The notes under the pieces were generated by a model, which was not told where the DNA came from, did no database searches, and was given only the letters and a program-made list of their open reading frames with translations. Shown in pieces: positions 6,160 through 16,413 of a stretch of 64,000 nucleotides of DNA. Position numbers and translations under genes: made by a program. Every line of letters begins with the position of its first letter. Position 1 is the first letter of the stretch. The stretch comes from an uncultured delta proteobacterium (GTDB lineage Bacteria > Myxococcota_A > Polyangia > Polyangiales > Polyangiaceae), in contig CAVQUB010000001.1 in the NCBI GenBank assembly GCA_963716725.1, positions 64,001-128,000 on the forward strand. Reading direction: 5' to 3'.

Positions 6160-6304
6160 CCTGCCCAGAACGGGGGTTCTGGGCAACCACCGATGGCCGT
6201 AGCTGACGAATCCCAAGTTCGCTCTCGTCGTGACCTGGGCTCGACCACGAGTCGCGGCGCCACCCTCGACCCGAACACCGCTGGGGCGAGCGCGTCGGAA
6301 AGAA

Positions 6305-7537
6305 ATGACCACAGCTCGAGTTCTTCTTCGGATCGCTTACAGACAGGACCTGGGTGCTACTCTGGCCTCCGTGGGGAAGACGCAGTTCGCACTACGGGCG
6401 CGATGGGTGACGCTTTTGGAAGCGCTGTACGCGCCGACGCCCGACGACCGTGAATGGGCCAGCGCGGTCGCGAACGCCGGCGACGCGATCTTCGGCGTGA
6501 CCGGGCGCTGCGGCGTCTGGCTGGTGTCGCATCCAGCGCCGTCGCAATCCGTTCAGATTCAGATCGCGGTCGGCACGGCCGCGGAACACGCGCTCATCTC
6601 CGGGAACCAGCACCTCGGCGTCGAGAACATCCGGCGCTTCTTGTATCCGGCGGGGCTGGTGACGACGCACCAAACGTTGGCGCGTGACATGAACGCCGAA
6701 GTGCGCGAGGCCCTCCGCATCGCGCACGAGAGCTTCGATTCCGTCGATGCGCTGGGGCTGCTGGTGCAGCCGAAGCCGGGTGCGGTGGCGGTCCTGTTCC
6801 ACCTCACTCGCCAGCCCATCGAGCTAACGCCCCAGCAGAAGCGCCTGTTGACCCAAGTGGCGCTGCACTTCGAAGTCGCTTGGCGTCTGCGGCTGAACCC
6901 GGACACCGTGCGCGGCGAGATCCTACCGGACGGACGGATCGCCGATCTGGCGGCAGGACAGGTCGACGCAGCGTCCCTCTCGACGCGGGTGCGCGCGATC
7001 GAGCGTGTTCGTACACGGCGTCACCGGAACGAACTCGACGCCATTGACCTGTGGACGGCGCTCGTGGACGGGCGCTTCAGTCTCGTCGAACGCTCCCAGG
7101 GCGGGCGCCGCCGCTACTGGGTCATCGAGAACCCGTCGGAACGTGTGCCGCTGCGGGCCCTGACGCCCGGCGAGGTCGAGGTGATCGCCCAGGCCGCGCG
7201 GGGACTTTCCGCCAAGCTCATCGCCTACTCGCTGGGGATCTCCGAGTCGGCCGTGTCGTCGCGACTGGCGGACGCGGCGAGCAAGGTTGGGACCGGGACC
7301 CGCACCGAGCTGGTGCGCATCGCTGCGCTCCTCGCCCGCGATCCTCGAGCCGGCTTCGCGCTGGAGCTGACGGACGCCGAGCGCAGCGTGCTTGACTTGG
7401 TGGTCCGGGGGTTGAGCAATCGGGAGATCGCGCATATTCGCAATCGCTCCGCGCGCACCATTGCAAATCAAGTCGCGTCGCTCTTGAGCAAAGCGCAAAG
7501 CCCGTCACGGCGTGCCTTGGCGACCCGACTCCTTTGA
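6305..7537 (+). CDS. LuxR-family transcriptional regulator with two tandem C-terminal HTH domains
   Basis: LTPGEVEVIAQAARGLSAKLIAYSLGISESAV and LTDAERSVLDLVVRGLSNREIAHIRNRSARTI. Confidence 0.85.
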   Translation: MTTARVLLRIAYRQDLGATLASVGKTQFALRARWVTLLEALYAPTPDDREWASAVANAGDAIFGVTGRCGVWLVSHPAPSQSVQIQIAVGTAAEHALISGNQHLGVENIRRFLYPAGLVTTHQTLARDMNAEVREALRIAHESFDSVDALGLLVQPKPGAVAVLFHLTRQPIELTPQQKRLLTQVALHFEVAWRLRLNPDTVRGEILPDGRIADLAAGQVDAASLSTRVRAIERVRTRRHRNELDAIDLWTALVDGRFSLVERSQGGRRRYWVIENPSERVPLRALTPGEVEVIAQAARGLSAKLIAYSLGISESAVSSRLADAASKVGTGTRTELVRIAALLARDPRAGFALELTDAERSVLDLVVRGLSNREIAHIRNRSARTIANQVASLLSKAQSPSRRALATRLL

Positions 7538-7710
7538 TCACCTCGCGCGGCTTCGGCGCGTCAAAACTGCGGGTTCCGAGCGATGAGCCGCGCCCCCGCC
7601 GCTTGCCGCAAGCCCCTCCGCTCCCGCCGCTTGCCGCTCTCGACCTCGAACCGCGACGCGCGTACCCTGAGACCGATGCTATCGCGTGTCGGAATGACAG
7701 CGGCGGGCTA

Positions 7711-8166
7711 ATGGCGTCGGTGGGCGACGAGTCGGAGCAAGGCCAACCTGGGGTCGGGCGGCTGTTCATTATCGGCGCTTTGGCCTGCATCGTCGCCGGC
7801 AGCGTGGGGCTGGGCTACGGGTGCCAGTACACCGGCGGCAAGCGGGCGGCGATTGACGACTACGCCGCCGCGCGCCGGGCTGGTCAGGACACAGCCGCGC
7901 CCCTGTTTGCCGACGACGACACTCGCGCGACCGACGCGTGGGTCGCCAAGAGCACGCGTCACAGCGTCTACAACTATCACTCGCGATTCGTCGGCGGTCA
8001 GTCCCGAGCCTGCTTCAGTACGGTGTTCTTCACGCCGGACGGGCTCCGGTGGATCGACGTTCTGCTGCTCGAAGTTCCGGACGGCTGGCGTGTGGCGTCG
8101 CTGAGTGAAGAGCGCGACTGCGAGTGCAAGCCCAAAACGAATCAGCCCTGCGCCATGGTGCCCTGA
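7711..8166 (+). CDS. hypothetical membrane-anchored protein
   Basis: One TM segment (LFIIGALACIVAGSVGLGYG), then a small domain with a C-terminal CECK...C motif. Confidence 0.6.
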   Translation: MASVGDESEQGQPGVGRLFIIGALACIVAGSVGLGYGCQYTGGKRAAIDDYAAARRAGQDTAAPLFADDDTRATDAWVAKSTRHSVYNYHSRFVGGQSRACFSTVFFTPDGLRWIDVLLLEVPDGWRVASLSEERDCECKPKTNQPCAMVP

Positions 8167-8347
8167 TGACGGACGTCCCGGCCCTGTCGCGTGCTGACTT
8201 CTCTACTGCCGTGCGCTGCTCGATGCGGCCTGCCTTCCCTCGACGAGCCGTGCGCATGACCATGATTCGGCCTGAATTGCGCCGCGACGCCCCGAGCACC
8301 CGAGAAACTAGCGCCCCTCCTGCGGCGTATACTCCAGACGAACTCCC

Positions 8348-8911
8348 ATGCGACCGCCGCGCAACAGCCTCGTCGGGCGTCCAGCGCTCCCGTTCGAGCT
8401 GCACGACTCGCACGGCAGCGTCCATCGTCTGTCCAACTACACCGGCAGGTGGCTCCTGCTGGTCTTCCATCGGCACCTGGCCTGACTTCCGTGCCGGGAG
8501 CATGTGGGGCAGTTGTTCCACGAGAAGCCGATGCTCGACAGCCTCGACATCGCGGTGCTGATCGTTTCGTTCGAGAGCCGCGCTTCGGTGGTTCGCTACG
8601 CATCAGATCCGGGGCTGCCGGGCGCGGTCGTGGCCGACACCCAGCGGGAACTCTTCGCTGGTTACGCCATGGGTCGAGCAAGCGTCTACGACGTCTGGGG
8701 CCCGAAGACGTGGTGGGCCTACGCGCGATCCCTGCTCGGAGGCGCGAAGCTTCGGAGCAGTACGGGTGACACCTCGCAGCGTGGCGGAAACGTGCTGATC
8801 GATCCCGAGGGCATCGTGCAAATGCACCACGTCGGACGAGGCCCGTCAGATCGACCGAGCGTGAGTGCGATTTCGGAGGTCGTACTCGCCGCCACCCAGA
8901 GGGGGCCATGA
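8348..8911 (+). CDS. peroxiredoxin-like (AhpC/TSA, PRXL2/SelL-like) thioredoxin-fold selenoprotein, UxxC
   Basis: ATG 8348 is in frame with ORF 8504-8911 through TGA at 8483-8485. Reads ALPFELHDSHGSVHRLSNYTGRWLLLVFHRHLA-U-LPCREH...QRGGNVLIDPEG...DRP. SECIS-like hairpin follows; ATGA overlap with the next gene. Confidence 0.85.
8486..8527 (+). promoter_or_regulatory. putative bacterial SECIS element
   Basis: Directly after UGA: CTTC-CGTG pairs with CACG-A-GAAG, GAGCA pairs with TGTTC, and TGT/GCA closes an apical GGG loop about 21 nt from the UGA. Confidence 0.65.
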
Positions 8912-10254
8912 AACCCCTCACGGTCTGCGTGTTTGCCAAACCTCCTCGAGCCGGCCGCGTGAAGACCCGCCTGATCGCCGGCGTCGGTGAGGGAGGCGCT
9001 GCGCAGCTTGCAGAAGCGTTTCTGCTGGACACGCTGGAGTCGCTGCGGAGGCTGCCCGACGTTCGCGTGATCGTCGCAACCACCGGTGACCTCGGTCTCG
9101 ATGTCGGTCCCGTCGAGGTCTGGGATCAAGGTGGTGGCACTCTCGGCCAGCGACTCGAGCGGGTCCTCGGGCGCGCAATCGGGGGCGGCACCCCAGCTTT
9201 GGCCATCGGCGCCGACACACCAGGGCTGCCGTTGGACCTCGTGACTCGGGCCGGGCTAGCGCTCGAGGCCCACCCGGCAGCCCTGGGCGCCTGCGATGAC
9301 GGCGGCTTTTGGGGCCTCGGGCTGACCTCGATTTCCGATGGGCTGCTCGCGGACATCGATTGGAGCACCGAACGGACCTGCGAACAGACGTGCGCTCGGT
9401 TGGTCGGCGCGGGGCTCGTGCCGCAGCTGCTTCCCGGATGGTTCGATCTGGACACGCCGGGTGATCTCGTGCGCCTCCGCCGGTTGCTCGACCGTCAGGT
9501 CGTGCAGGCGCCACGCACACGCGCCTTGCTCGACTCGTTGCTGCCTGCGCCCGCGATGAAAGTCTCGGTCGTGATCCCCGTCCTCGACGAAGAACGGCGG
9601 ATTGGAAGACTCCTGCGAGACCTGTCACGAACGGACGGGATTTCCGAGATCATCGTGGTGGACGGCGGCAGCCGCGATGGCACTCCCGACATCGTCCGCG
9701 CTTTTCCGGACGCACTGTTGCTGGACAGCACCCCGGGCCGGGGACCCCAACAGAATGCCGGCGCGCGCGTGGCCACCGGCGACGTTCTACTCTTCTTGCA
9801 TGCCGACACTCGCCTTCCGGAGGACGCGATGGCTCACATCCGTTCGGCGCTCGCCGATCCAAGGGTCGTGGCCGGCGCTTTTCGTACTTGGACGGTACGA
9901 GATGAGCCATTCGCCCGGGACGTTGCGCTTCCCGCGGCGCTGCTCCACTTGGCCGACCTGCGTTCGCGCTACACGAGCTTGCCCTACGGCGACCAAGGGA
10001 TCTTCGTGCGGCGCGAGGTGTTCGACCGTGTCGGAGGGTTTCCTCCGCAACCGCTCTTCGAAGATGTCGAGCTGTCACGCAGGCTGCGCCGCCAGGGCCG
10101 CATCGAAACGGTGCGCGCTTCGGTAGAGGTGTCAGGGAGGAGATTCTTCCGCCGCCCGGTCCGAGAGACCCTCCTGGTCAACTTGTTGCCGCTGGCTTAC
10201 CGGCTCGGCGTCTCGCCGACGCGGCTCTCCCGCGTATACCGGAACTTCCGCTGA
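8908..10254 (+). CDS. fusion of TIGR04282-like (CofC-like/DUF2064) and TIGR04283-like (GT2) rSAM-associated, arsenosugar-type transferases
   Basis: N-half: VFAKPPRAGRVKTRL, QGGGTLGQRL, IGADTP, DGGFWGLG, DLDTPGDL. C-half from about 9556: VSVVIPVLDEE, VVDGGSRDGT, LFLHADT, LPYGDQGIFVRR, LFEDVELSRRL. Confidence 0.9.
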   Translation: MKPLTVCVFAKPPRAGRVKTRLIAGVGEGGAAQLAEAFLLDTLESLRRLPDVRVIVATTGDLGLDVGPVEVWDQGGGTLGQRLERVLGRAIGGGTPALAIGADTPGLPLDLVTRAGLALEAHPAALGACDDGGFWGLGLTSISDGLLADIDWSTERTCEQTCARLVGAGLVPQLLPGWFDLDTPGDLVRLRRLLDRQVVQAPRTRALLDSLLPAPAMKVSVVIPVLDEERRIGRLLRDLSRTDGISEIIVVDGGSRDGTPDIVRAFPDALLLDSTPGRGPQQNAGARVATGDVLLFLHADTRLPEDAMAHIRSALADPRVVAGAFRTWTVRDEPFARDVALPAALLHLADLRSRYTSLPYGDQGIFVRREVFDRVGGFPPQPLFEDVELSRRLRRQGRIETVRASVEVSGRRFFRRPVRETLLVNLLPLAYRLGVSPTRLSRVYRNFR

Positions 10255-10261
10255 GGCATGA

Positions 10262-11263
10262 ATGACGATCGCCGAACGCCACCACTTGCCAGTTGCCTCG
10301 CATCGCTTTCCTACGATGCTGCGTGCGCACGGGCGGAAACTGCCGTCGCGCGATGTCGTGACCACCTTGCAGGTCAACGTGGGCAAACGTTGCAATCAAG
10401 CCTGCAGACATTGCCACGTGGACGCTGGTCCGAACCGAAGCGAGAGCATGTCGGCAGAGGTCGCGAATAGGGTGATCCAGCTGTTGGCGGCGAGCCCTAG
10501 CGTCGCCACTCTGGACATTACCGGCGGTGCGCCAGAGCTGAACCCGAGCTTTCGCACCTTGGTCATGAAGGCCCGTGCACGCGGCGTCGAGGTCATCGAC
10601 CGGTGCAACCTCACGGTGCTCTTCGAACCCGAGATGGAAGGGCTTGCAGGGTTCTTGGCGGAGCAAGGCGTGCACGTCGTGGCGAGCCTGCCTTGCTACA
10701 CCGAGGAGAATGTCGATCGGCAGCGCGGTCGCGGCACGTTCGAAAAGAGCGTGCACGCCCTTCGGTTACTCAACTCGCTCGGCTATGCCGCCCGCGATGA
10801 GCTCCGGCTCGACTTGGTCTACAACCCTCTCGGCCCGTCGCTACCGCCACCGCAGGCGCCGCTCGAGCAGGACTACCGCGAGCGCCTCGCCGCGGACTTC
10901 GGCGTCGCGTTTTCCCGACTGCTCACCTTGACGAACATGCCGATCCACCGATTCGCGAACGACCTGGCGCGAACGGGTCGACAAGACGCCTACTGGGCCT
11001 TGCTCGAAGAGAGCTTCAACGCCGCGACGCTGCCGGGGCTGATGTGCCGCTCACTGGTCAGCGTCGACTATCGCGGCCAGCTCTTCGACTGCGATTTCAA
11101 CCAGGTGGTCGGGCTGCGCGCGGGGTCGGGGTCGGACTCGCCCTCGACGATCTGGGAGATCGACTGCCTCGATCAGCTGACTGGCTCGTCGATCGCCGTC
11201 GCCGACCACTGCCTGGGGTGTACCGCCGGGGCGGGTTCGAGCTGTTCGGGTTCACTCGCCTGA
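10262..11263 (+). CDS. arsS: arsenosugar-biosynthesis-type radical SAM protein with Cys-rich C-terminal domain (DUF3641)
   Basis: LQVNVGKRCNQACRHCHVDAGP (CxxxCxxC), DITGGAPELNP, ASLPCY, NMPIHRF, MCR...DCDFNQ, HCLGCTAGAGSSCSG. Confidence 0.92.
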   Translation: MTIAERHHLPVASHRFPTMLRAHGRKLPSRDVVTTLQVNVGKRCNQACRHCHVDAGPNRSESMSAEVANRVIQLLAASPSVATLDITGGAPELNPSFRTLVMKARARGVEVIDRCNLTVLFEPEMEGLAGFLAEQGVHVVASLPCYTEENVDRQRGRGTFEKSVHALRLLNSLGYAARDELRLDLVYNPLGPSLPPPQAPLEQDYRERLAADFGVAFSRLLTLTNMPIHRFANDLARTGRQDAYWALLEESFNAATLPGLMCRSLVSVDYRGQLFDCDFNQVVGLRAGSGSDSPSTIWEIDCLDQLTGSSIAVADHCLGCTAGAGSSCSGSLA

Positions 11264-11304
11264 AGATTTCGACGCGCCCGCGACCGAAACTCCGAAGCGA
11301 GGCG

Positions 11305-11517
11305 TCAGCGCCGGCTGGCGCGCCACGCATAGAGCGCGCCGAGAGCCGCAGCCGCCATGATCAGCCATCCCGAGATGAAGATCGGCTCGGACCTGGCGCC
11401 GAGCACGCTGACCAGACCGACGAGCGAAGCGGCGAAGGCCGCGGCGTACCAGGCCCTCGGTGAGGCGGGCCGCGGTGGCGTGAGCCGAAGGCGGCGCCGA
11501 AACTCTCGGTCACTCAT
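11305..11517 (-). CDS. small two-TM membrane protein
   Basis: ATGA overlap with the stop of 11514-13670; two hydrophobic segments in 70 aa. Confidence 0.55.
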   Translation of the reverse strand: MSDREFRRRLRLTPPRPASPRAWYAAAFAASLVGLVSVLGARSEPIFISGWLIMAAAALGALYAWRASRR

Positions 11518-13670
11518 TGAGACCTCGCGGCGCCTCGGCGCCAAGCGTGGAAGCGTTCCAACCACCCGAGCAGCCTTTCGGGGGCATGCGCCTTCTTCCA
11601 CGCCCCCGCGGCGTAGCGGTTTGCTTCGACGAGGGTCGGATAGATGTGGATCGTCCCGAGCAGTTTGTTCAGCCCGATGCGATGCCGCATCGCGAGCACG
11701 AATTCGGCGATGAGGTCGCCGGCGTGCTCGCCCACGATAGTGACGCCGAGGATGCGATCCTTGCCCGGCACGGTCAGCACCTTGACGAAGCCGTGGGCTT
11801 CTTCGTCAGCGATCGCTCGGTCCAAGTCGTCGATGTCGTAACGGGTCACTTCGTAGGCGATGGCCTTCTCCTGGGCCTCCTGTTCGCTCAGACCGACCCG
11901 CGCCACCTCGGGATCCACGAACGTGGCCCACGGAATGACGGAGTAGTCGGCGCGGAACTTCTTGAGAGGATCGAAGAGCGCGTTGACGGAGGCGTACCAA
12001 GCCTGGTGCGCGGCTGTGTGGGTGAACTGGAACGGGCCAGCGACGTCCCCAGCGGCATAGATGTTCGGGAAGCGCGTCTGGAGAAACTCGTTGACCTCGA
12101 CGGTGCGGGCCACCGGAACGCCCAGCTCCTCGAGACCGTAGCCCTTCACGTTTGCCGCTCGGCCCACGGCTACGAGCATTCGGTCGAACGGGATGCGCAC
12201 CTCGCGACCGGCGTGTTCGGCGACCAACTCGTTCTGTCCCTTCGCGACCTCGACACGCGTCGCGACGTGCTCGACCCGGACATCGATCCCCTCTTGCACG
12301 AAGCGGGCTCGGACGACCTCGGACACCTCGGGATCCTCCCGGGGCAACAGTCGCGGCAGCATCTCGACCTGCGTCACCCTCGACCCGAGGCGTGCGAAGG
12401 CTTGGGTCAGCTCCGAGCCGATGGGGCCTCCTCCGAGCACGACCAGGCGCGGGGGCAGCTCCCGGAGGTCCCACAGGTTGTCCGATGTCAGAACGTCGAT
12501 CTCGTCGAGGCCGGGGATCGGCGGAACGAACGGCCGCGCGCCGGCCGCGATCACGATGGAGCGTGTCGTGAGAGTGCGCTTGCCCGCGGGCAGTGTTACC
12601 TCGACGCTCCAGGGCGTCGTGATTTTGGCGCTGCCTTCGAGCACCTCGACCCCAAGCTCCGTGTACCGCTCGACCGAGTCGTGGGGCTCGATGGCTTTCA
12701 CGACGCGCTGGACGCGATCCATCACTTCACCGAAGTCGACCTCGGCGCTGGCGCTCTTGATGCCAAACTGCTTCGCGCGCGCGATGTGGGACAGGAACTT
12801 GGCGGATCGCAGCAGCGCCTTCGATGGCACGCAGCCCGTGTTCAGACAGTCTCCGCCCATCTTGTGCTTCTCGACGAGCGTGACTTTGGCTCTGAGAACC
12901 GCCGCGATGTACGCGGTCACCAGACCCGCACTCCCCGCGCCGATCACGACCATGTTGCGGTCGAAGCGCTTGGGCTTCTTCCATCCGGAATAGATCCGCC
13001 GCGCCGCGAGCCAGCTCGAGAGTTTCTTGGCGGCGAGGGGCAAGACGCCGAGCAACGCCAGGGAGCCCAACACGCCCGCCGACAGCACGTCTCCAATCGA
13101 CCCGAGCTCGGCCAGGCGCGTCCCCGCGTTCACGAAGACCACCGTGCCAGCGAGCATTCCGGCCTGGCTGACCCAAAAGAAGGTCCGGGTGCGGATCGAC
13201 GTGAGTCCCATCAGCAGGTTCACCACGAAGAAAGGAAACGCCGGCACCAGCCGGAGAGTGAACAAGTAGAACGCACCGTCTCGCTCGATGCCCCGATCGA
13301 CGGCCTCGAGTTGGTTCGCGAAGCGCTCCGCAACCCAGTCGCGGAGCACGAAGCGGGAGATCAAGAAAGCGAGCGTGGCCCCGATAGTCGACGCGATCGA
13401 CACGAGCAACGTACCCCACACGACACCGAACAGCGCTCCAGCACCGAGCGTCATGACCGCGGCCCCGGGGAGCGATAGCGCCGTCACGGCGATGTAGACG
13501 GCGACGAAGAGCGCGCCCGCCCGCACCGGGCTTGCGCTCGCAAGCTCCGCAAGACGAACGCGGTTCGCCTTCAAAACGTCGAAGTCGAGGCTGCGGCCCA
13601 GGTCGAACACGAAAAAGATCGCGACGGCGCAAACCAACGCCAGAGCGATCAGTACCCTCTTGGTGCTCAT
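11514..13670 (-). CDS. VTT/DedA (SNARE-associated) membrane domain fused to a pyridine nucleotide-disulfide oxidoreductase (MerA/Lpd-like)
   Basis: N-term ALSLPGA...LRLVPAFPFFVVN (VTT); VIGAGSAG, GGDCLNTGCVPSK, VLGGGPIG, IYAAGDV, IHIYPT. Confidence 0.92.
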   Translation of the reverse strand: MSTKRVLIALALVCAVAIFFVFDLGRSLDFDVLKANRVRLAELASASPVRAGALFVAVYIAVTALSLPGAAVMTLGAGALFGVVWGTLLVSIASTIGATLAFLISRFVLRDWVAERFANQLEAVDRGIERDGAFYLFTLRLVPAFPFFVVNLLMGLTSIRTRTFFWVSQAGMLAGTVVFVNAGTRLAELGSIGDVLSAGVLGSLALLGVLPLAAKKLSSWLAARRIYSGWKKPKRFDRNMVVIGAGSAGLVTAYIAAVLRAKVTLVEKHKMGGDCLNTGCVPSKALLRSAKFLSHIARAKQFGIKSASAEVDFGEVMDRVQRVVKAIEPHDSVERYTELGVEVLEGSAKITTPWSVEVTLPAGKRTLTTRSIVIAAGARPFVPPIPGLDEIDVLTSDNLWDLRELPPRLVVLGGGPIGSELTQAFARLGSRVTQVEMLPRLLPREDPEVSEVVRARFVQEGIDVRVEHVATRVEVAKGQNELVAEHAGREVRIPFDRMLVAVGRAANVKGYGLEELGVPVARTVEVNEFLQTRFPNIYAAGDVAGPFQFTHTAAHQAWYASVNALFDPLKKFRADYSVIPWATFVDPEVARVGLSEQEAQEKAIAYEVTRYDIDDLDRAIADEEAHGFVKVLTVPGKDRILGVTIVGEHAGDLIAEFVLAMRHRIGLNKLLGTIHIYPTLVEANRYAAGAWKKAHAPERLLGWLERFHAWRRGAARSQ

Positions 13671-15668: not shown

Positions 15669-16413
15669 TCAGCCCAGCGTTTTCTTGAAGTCCGCAGGCG
15701 TCATGGCCTCGAGCGGCAGCGCAAAGATGTCGCGGTGGGTACCGAGGTGCTCGAGGGCCCTGGCGAGATACGCCCGCGCGGGGACGCGCTGCGCGCGGCA
15801 GGTGGCGATGAAGCCGAGGAGCACGCAGGCGCGGTGGGCCCCTTCGGTGCTACCGGCGAAGAGCGTGTCGAGGCGGAGCTTGGCGACGTTCTGGAACTCG
15901 CGCTCGGTGGGAGAGTTGTCGATGGGGACCAGGGGGTCGTCGACGAAACGGAAGGGCGCGTCCCGGTGGTTCTTGTAGTACCGAATTGCCGCCCCCAGCG
16001 GGTCGGAGGGCAAGAGCGTCGGTTCCACCGCGTCGCGCCAGCTCTCGAAGTCCTGGATAGTGGGGCGAAGATGCCGCTGCCGCTGTTCGCGGAGCGCATC
16101 GCCGACGAGGCCGAGCTTCTGCGCCTTCTCCTCCTCGCCGTAGATCGCCCCGAGCACGCGGCTCGAGGTGAAGACGTCGTTGAAGCGATGCTCGGCGTCG
16201 GCAGTGAGGGTGCCGCGGAAGGCCTGAGCTTCGCGGCGACGACGTCGCCGCTTTTGTCGGGCTCGTACTGGAAGACGGCGACGTCGTTGTTTCGATAGAG
16301 CTCCACGTAGCCGTTGTGCGCGGCGCCGGACGGCGACGGCGAGGGCGTCGAACGAACCGCGCATGTCGAGCGGGGCCACCGCCACGAACACGCGCCGGAT
16401 GCAGGCTCAGCAC
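15669..16413 (-). pseudogene. tnpC: IS66 tnpB N-terminus joined by deletion to fragments of tnpC transposase
   Basis: FVAVAPLDMRGSFDAL (TnpB); VAVFQYEPDKSG..FRGTLTADA; PLGAAIRYY..PIDNSPTERE..LFAGSTEGA (TnpC); frameshifts present. Confidence 0.85.

Follow-up and report, generated by a model that had tools for sequence, protein, structure and literature searches.

A predicted SelL-related selenoprotein heads an arsenosugar gene cluster in a Polyangiaceae genome

RESULTS

Organization of the locus

The window, as we call the whole 64,000-nt stretch of DNA that was analysed, comes from an uncultured member of the Polyangiaceae. An earlier note on this DNA had described a hidden selenoprotein gene as the first of an arsS operon, and three tightly packed, co-directional genes were indeed found in the order selenoprotein, transferase fusion, ArsS, with a fourth gene converging on them (Table 1).

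Table 1. Features of the selenoprotein-arsS locus (positions in the window)
Feature	Positions	Strand	Basis
Predicted selenoprotein gene, SelL-related redox protein	8348..8911	+	read-through frame; NF040769, PF00578 and PF13911 profiles
UGA predicted to be read as selenocysteine, residue 46	8483..8485	+	TGA conserved in relatives, Cys in distant homologs
Predicted SECIS hairpin, 7-bp stem and loop AGUU (8511-8514)	8504..8521	+	covariation, folding, bSECIS constraints
Fused TIGR04282 + TIGR04283 'arsenosugar biosynthesis glycosyltransferase'	8908..10254	+	profile matches
ArsS, radical SAM arsenosugar enzyme, Cys form (ends ...GSSCSGSLA)	10262..11263	+	TIGR04167, C-terminal alignment
DedA/VTT membrane domain fused to class I pyridine-nucleotide disulfide oxidoreductase	11514..13670	-	Pfam domains; convergent

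The frame of the first gene runs from an ATG at 8348–8350 to a TGA stop at 8909–8911 and comprises 187 codons and the stop. The codon coordinates confirmed that it reaches this ATG through a lone in-frame TGA, and a Cys codon (TGC) lies at 8492–8494. There is an in-frame TAG upstream at 8309–8311, and none of the start codons ATG, GTG and TTG occurs in frame from there to 8348; thus, ATG 8348 is the sole start 5′ of the TGA. The list of open reading frames made with table 11 gave just the 135-codon tail (8504–8911). The centre of the read-through product would be F-H-R-H-L-A-U-L-P-C-R-E-H, with the redox motif U46-L-P-C49 in a thioredoxin fold. As the earlier note had also observed, the stop of this gene overlaps the next ATG (8908–8910), forming an ATGA at 8908–8911 with a 4-nt start/stop overlap. 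Because of this overlap, the arsenosugar genes most likely share a transcript with the selenoprotein gene and are coupled to it in translation. A simple promoter and terminator scan of 7400–11700 returned neither, and no clear Shine–Dalgarno sequence was seen.

The transferase fusion is 448 aa long and matched TIGR04283 with 218.4 bits (cut-off 182), while TIGR04282, at 134.3 bits, barely reached its cut-off of 134. At another locus, L143, TIGR04282 and TIGR04283 were two adjacent matches. A gap of 7 nt separates the fusion from ArsS, which matched TIGR04167 with 420.4 bits (cut-off 300). The convergent gene encodes a 718-aa product with a VTT_dom at residues 71–184, Pyr_redox_2 at 239–557 and Pyr_redox_dim at 579–685. 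Its reductase part is MerA/GR-like, with a CLNTGC redox motif and an H-x-Y-P-T...E tail that is without a C-terminal Cys pair. About 2 kb beyond this gene, a fragment of an IS66-family transposase (PF03050, residues 80–186 only) lies at 15669–16391 on the minus strand. Upstream of the selenoprotein gene and on the same strand, 6230–7537 encodes a 435-aa protein with two LuxR/GerE HTH domains, possibly a control gene of the operon, and its stop is overlapped by the start of a 210-aa protein that has no family match (7534–8166, plus strand).

The UGA codon is conserved and the genome encodes a selenocysteine machinery

Among 80 relatives taken from species-representative genomes, which spanned at least eight phyla, the codon aligned with the UGA was TGA in 79, the single exception (L129) having TGT. 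It was also TGA in all 39 of the relatives that covered the codon among 48 metagenome loci. A 47%-identical ortholog from G047, a genome of the same family, also had TGA. In the metagenome scan, no relative that covered the TGA site was more than 51% identical. Among 22 relatives in protein databases, 21 started after the TGA and were C-terminal pieces of 109–141 aa, which bore out the expectation that standard annotation would truncate the gene. The sole full-length entry, P0009, reads C-L-P-C, and distant family members read R-H-F-G-C-x-x-C. Homologs thus carried either TGA or Cys at this codon, the alternatives that the earlier note had proposed to look for, and a Sec/Cys pairing at the position of U46 was seen with L129, P0009 and the distant homologs.

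The complete set of selenocysteine genes named by the earlier note was present in the genome. Matches to selA (467 bits), selB (281 bits) and selD (302 bits, in a gene with its own in-frame TGA) all exceeded the curated cut-offs, and a tRNA-Sec gene (selC) with anticodon TCA adjoins selB. Besides selD (G000:C6:227368-228291), further in-frame TGA codons were found in one of the two arsM genes that lie elsewhere in the genome (G000:C32:128462-129247) and in another Prx-like stretch (G000:C15:80899-81132); a similar case was seen in G047 (G047:C12:897660). These TGA-bearing selD, arsM and Prx-like stretches are likely to be further selenoproteins.

The earlier note had listed a sequencing error as a way in which its reading could fail. 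Logan contigs of run X1, which may be the source sample of the window, were identical to it over 8200–9807. Contigs from two other studies, X6 (2015) and X10 (2025), each spanned 8240–11300 with 129 differences and no gaps (approximately 96% identity), and therefore have the same three-gene order. No difference at 8483–8485 was found among the 40 of 125 differences listed, which cover 8278–9253 without a break, so that the TGA was unchanged in X1 and in the contigs of both other studies. Run X5 did not extend over the TGA, and a search for RNA runs containing the stretch returned none. X6 and X10 come from wastewater studies ten years apart with an identical order of the three genes, and this recurrence of the operon indicates that a sister strain is widespread.

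A covarying SECIS hairpin lies downstream of the UGA

A hairpin that begins 18 nt past the UGA, with the arms GUGGGGC and GUUCCAC on either side of the loop, had a folding energy of -8.0 kcal/mol and a z-score of -3.25. To compare this hairpin among relatives, 82 sequences were anchored on the TGA in a gapless alignment, in which columns 22–28 pair with columns 33–39. Standard pairs made up 95.2% of the cells, compared to 75.7% in shuffled alignments (0 of 500 as high) and 20–65% in controls with slid partners, and compensatory changes on both sides were found in five of the seven pairs. The loop codons CAG-TTG had fixed third positions (G30 and G33 invariant) in 82 of 82 sequences, from GC-rich and GC-poor genomes alike, and this fixation irrespective of GC content indicated selection on the RNA. 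The hairpin showed each of the four constraints of the bSECIS model that are given in the legend of Fig. 2 of PMC13188914, namely a stem of 7 bp, a loop of four nucleotides in which the second is G and the third U, a distance of 25 nt from the UGA to the loop, and a minimum free energy below -7.5. In the Cys-form relative L129, the hairpin was degraded to -3.0 kcal/mol. Of the changes in X6 and X10, two (8517 T>C and 8518 C>T) leave base pairing intact, and a third (8521 C>A) disrupts the outermost pair.

The earlier note had correctly expected a SECIS hairpin just 3′ of the UGA, but had placed it directly behind the codon. A candidate at that place, 8486–8500, had 51% of its cells paired, no more than in the shuffled or slid controls, and showed no covariation; it was rejected, and the conserved element is the hairpin listed in Table 1. 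Nor did the description of a G-rich apical loop hold, since the loop contains one G and the G-rich part is the 5′ arm. The whole segment 8483–8545 folded no more stably than shuffled sequences (z 0.28), and only the 18-nt hairpin stood out. An Rfam scan of 8000–11600 at E <= 10 returned no SECIS family and only two chance matches to lncRNAs. The conserved TGA, the SECIS just 3′ of it and the sel genes together upheld the claim of a hidden UxxC selenoprotein.

The read-through product belongs to the SelL-related redox proteins

In an NCBIfam profile search, the read-through protein matched NF040769, 'SelL-related redox protein', with 162.8 bits (cut-off 120), residues 12–178 aligning with profile positions 2–172 of 173. 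NF040769 itself falls within PF13911 (AhpC-TSA_2, Prx-like2). It also matched PF00578 AhpC-TSA (56.2 bits, cut-off 26, 4e-15, residues 9–158) and PF13911 AhpC-TSA_2 (41.4 bits, cut-off 27, 2e-10), and passed the Pfam Redoxin threshold. Both the AhpC-TSA and the NF040769 matches cross the TGA, in line with the earlier placement of this codon at the first redox position of FHRHLA-U-LPC-REH with thioredoxin-fold homology on both sides. Across 39 aligned members, R42, H43, L44, U46, L47, C49 and H52 were invariant and R-H-L-G-U-L-P-C-R-x-H was almost so. The window protein has the same U/C-x-x-C centre as NF040769 and scores over the cut-off along its full length, with no difference in the protein itself; what is unusual is where its gene lies, in first place in an ArsS operon.

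The catalytic peroxiredoxin equivalogs were missed by a wide margin, with 27.9 bits against a cut-off of 260 for PrxQ and 23.2 against 270 for PrxU. The segment G-U-L-P-C occupies the position of a CxxC motif and not that of the peroxidatic T-x-x-C/U motif; TxxU is the motif given for Prx selenoproteins in PMC13188914. No ArsC arsenate-reductase family was matched among the Pfam and NCBIfam profiles at E <= 0.01. A search of solved structures gave only weak matches, the best being ResA (PDB 1st9, E 0.005), in which U46 and C49 fall on the two cysteines of the CxxC. ResA is extracytoplasmic and acts in cytochrome c maturation, whereas no signal sequence was seen in the window protein.

Selenoprotein L of aquatic eukaryotes and marine bacteria shares with the window protein a Prx-like thioredoxin fold and a redox motif that contains Sec. 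Its motif is reportedly UxxU, as Shchedrina et al. are said to have described in 2007. This UxxU motif of Selenoprotein L proper is absent from the window protein, which has UxxC in the form of U-L-P-C. SelL has been termed 'a Prx-like protein' (PMC2398784). A 'Prx-like thiol:disulfide oxidoreductase' selenoprotein with a UxxC motif is tabulated for Geobacter, Syntrophus and Desulfotalea (PMC13188914, PMC1794560), and it has the UxxC motif, PF00578 and the host groups in common with the present relatives. The NF040769 members are most likely this tabulated family. The family is already catalogued, a curated NCBI model exists, and the position in an ArsS operon is the sole unusual point.

Linkage to ArsS is rare and arose at least twice

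An ArsS gene lay within 6 kb of the SelL-related gene in 5 of 80 genome loci (L060, L090, L094, L096 and L099) and in the window, giving 6 of 82, and in none of the 48 metagenome loci. Conversely, a SelL-related gene was absent from all six ArsS loci of same-family genomes and from all 20 that were drawn from across the phylum. In G047, the SelL-related ortholog and ArsS are on different contigs. Among 301 genomes of the phylum, ArsS was present in 133, a SelL-related gene (E <= 1e-20) in 76 and both in 51; by raw counts, uncorrected for kinship, ArsS occurred in 51 of the 76 genomes with the family compared to 82 of the 225 without it. A comparison by eye placed the two genes within 10 kb of each other in 2 of the 51 genomes, that of the window (G000) and G334. 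The G334 gene (L202 10305-10820, minus strand; G334:C34) encodes a UxxU member of NF040769 (122.9 bits) that reads R-H-L-A-U-L-A-U-H-E-H and so matches the diselenide-type motif of SelL proper; it precedes ArsS by 3.6 kb in the same orientation, with unrelated genes between, and adjoins an ECF sigma factor. The exact arrangement of the window was found elsewhere only in X6 and X10. These counts, together with the wide distribution of the family, spoke against the earlier note's claim that the protein is dedicated to the ArsS/transferase pathway.

In a quick tree with SH-aLRT support only, the five ArsS-linked loci formed one supported Desulfuromonadales clade, and the window protein was distant from it on a long branch. 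The gene order in this clade (reductase, DedA, selenoprotein, ArsS, DUF3047, transferase) differs from that of the window. The window ArsS was 42% identical to the ArsS of the Desulfuromonadales clade and 57–58% identical to ArsS of its own family; thus, the linkage was built at least twice. By a rough estimate, approximately 0.1–0.2 ArsS-adjacent loci would be expected by chance among 82, so that two independent recruitments would exceed chance, yet they are two events only.

A DedA gene and a flavoprotein reductase gene were found beside the selenoprotein in six Desulfuromonadales loci, upstream and as separate adjacent genes, in contrast to the fused form in the window. DedA and the reductase also lay directly downstream of ArsS in 3 of the 20 sampled ArsS loci, and in L143 the reductase adjoins ArsS. 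When the neighbouring open reading frames of the 82 loci were clustered, no common neighbour emerged. The largest groups were sensor kinases (11), flavoprotein reductases (11, the window included) and heavy-metal P-type ATPases (10), followed by ABC transporters (7 loci) and rhodanese (6 loci), and because the neighbours vary in this way, the NF040769 family has no single partner.

DISCUSSION

The locus very probably encodes, judging from its sequence, one 187-residue cytoplasmic SelL-related Sec oxidoreductase at the head of a co-transcribed arsenosugar unit. SelB and tRNA-Sec would decode the UGA as Sec, directed by the in-frame SECIS. Sec46 would replace the attacking first cysteine of the CxxC centre, form a selenenyl-sulfide with Cys49 in turnover, and cycle between this and the selenol/thiol form. 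In annotation, the gene needs to be read through the UGA; otherwise the active site is lost, as it has been in 21 of the 22 database relatives.

Two simpler accounts of the TGA were weighed against this assignment. It might be a true stop, leaving a pseudogene or two separate small genes, as the 135-codon piece given by table 11 and the equally truncated public gene calls of relatives would have it. We consider this very improbable, because 118 of 119 pooled genome and metagenome relatives have TGA at this position with homology on both sides, the SECIS covaries, the Sec machinery is complete and the active-site motif would be lost. Even less credible is that a TGC or TGT cysteine codon was misread in sequencing or assembly. 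Single-base errors do occur in metagenome bins, but the contig of X1 is identical, the approximately 96% identical contigs have no difference at the codon among those listed, and the TGA is common to the relatives.

What the predicted selenoprotein does in an arsenosugar operon is a separate question. The window has ArsS (TIGR04167) and the TIGR04282/TIGR04283 transferases in common with the Synechocystis-type ArsM-ArsS pathway, its ArsM genes being elsewhere in the genome. In the text available to us, that pathway is described without a redoxin or selenoprotein, whereas the operon in the window has one. ArsS adenosylates DMAs(III) to DDMAA in what the available text of PMC13598754 gives as a redox-neutral reaction, for which no reductase is therefore needed. 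The selenoprotein could instead maintain in reduced form either the Cys-rich ArsS tail or a methylated arsenical, for instance the DMAs(III) on which ArsS acts, and could itself be re-reduced by the neighbouring DedA-anchored NAD(P)H flavoprotein disulfide reductase. Since a DedA-linked flavoprotein reductase recurs beside both genes, the gene neighbourhood suggests a redox relay from the flavoprotein to the selenoprotein. That the selenoprotein works as a selenol/thiol reductase for the ArsS module, re-reduced by the DedA-fused flavoprotein, is accordingly put forward here as a tentative proposal that may well prove wrong. More doubtful is the wider idea that Sec-redoxin, DedA-linked flavoprotein and ArsS form an optional selenium-dependent module of organo-arsenical synthesis that was assembled at least twice independently, in which electrons would pass from NAD(P)H through the flavoprotein and the U-x-x-C protein and finally reach either the Cys-rich tail of ArsS or a methylated arsenical.

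Much depends on how specific the association with ArsS is. In its strictest form, as the earlier note had it, the protein would be a Sec-dependent reductase that works for the ArsS pathway alone and perhaps acts on a pentavalent organo-arsenical. Possible substrates of such an enzyme would be DMAs(V), yielding the DMAs(III) required by ArsS, and DDMAA, the As(V) product. The coupling of its translation to that of the transferase and ArsS points this way, as do the independent origin of the same linkage in the Desulfuromonadales clade and the use of trivalent DMAs by ArsS (PMC13598754). Sec-containing arsenate reductases and ArsM are also tabulated as selenoprotein families in PMC13188914, and one ArsM here has an in-frame TGA. 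We nevertheless regard such a dedicated reductase as rather unlikely, given the rarity of the linkage (6/82 genome, 0/48 metagenome and 0/20 ArsS loci), the unlinked ortholog in G047 and the lack of similarity to ArsC families. A selenol/thiol-disulfide oxidoreductase of general use under redox or metal stress, whose position next to ArsS is incidental or only regulatory, is a serious possibility that falls somewhat short of an even chance. It would fit the varied neighbours over the 82 loci (P-type metal ATPase, rhodanese, ABC transporter and sensor kinases), the spread of the family over at least eight phyla, and the 25 of 76 phylum genomes that have the family and show no ArsS. However, the 4-nt start/stop overlap argues for co-expression, and the recurrence of ArsS with DedA and reductase in two unrelated lineages is above the roughly estimated 0.1–0.2 loci per 82 expected by chance.

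If the wider idea of a selenium-dependent module is true, the Sec-redoxin and the flavoprotein would be the first named redox helpers of the arsenosugar pathway. No link of arsenosugar genes with a SelL-related protein, a peroxiredoxin-like protein or DedA was found in the literature searched, subscription journals being outside that search. The coupling to ArsS here and in Desulfuromonadales, together with the shared DedA and reductase, offers a concrete lead, though not a result, on the function of the family and on accessory steps of arsenosugar synthesis. The family also recurs in another metal-related setting, with the selenoprotein gene lying directly beside a heavy-metal P-type ATPase gene with HMBD and YHS domains in approximately ten Desulfobulbia-type loci (L053, L055, L061, L071, L084-L086, L101, L109 and L115).
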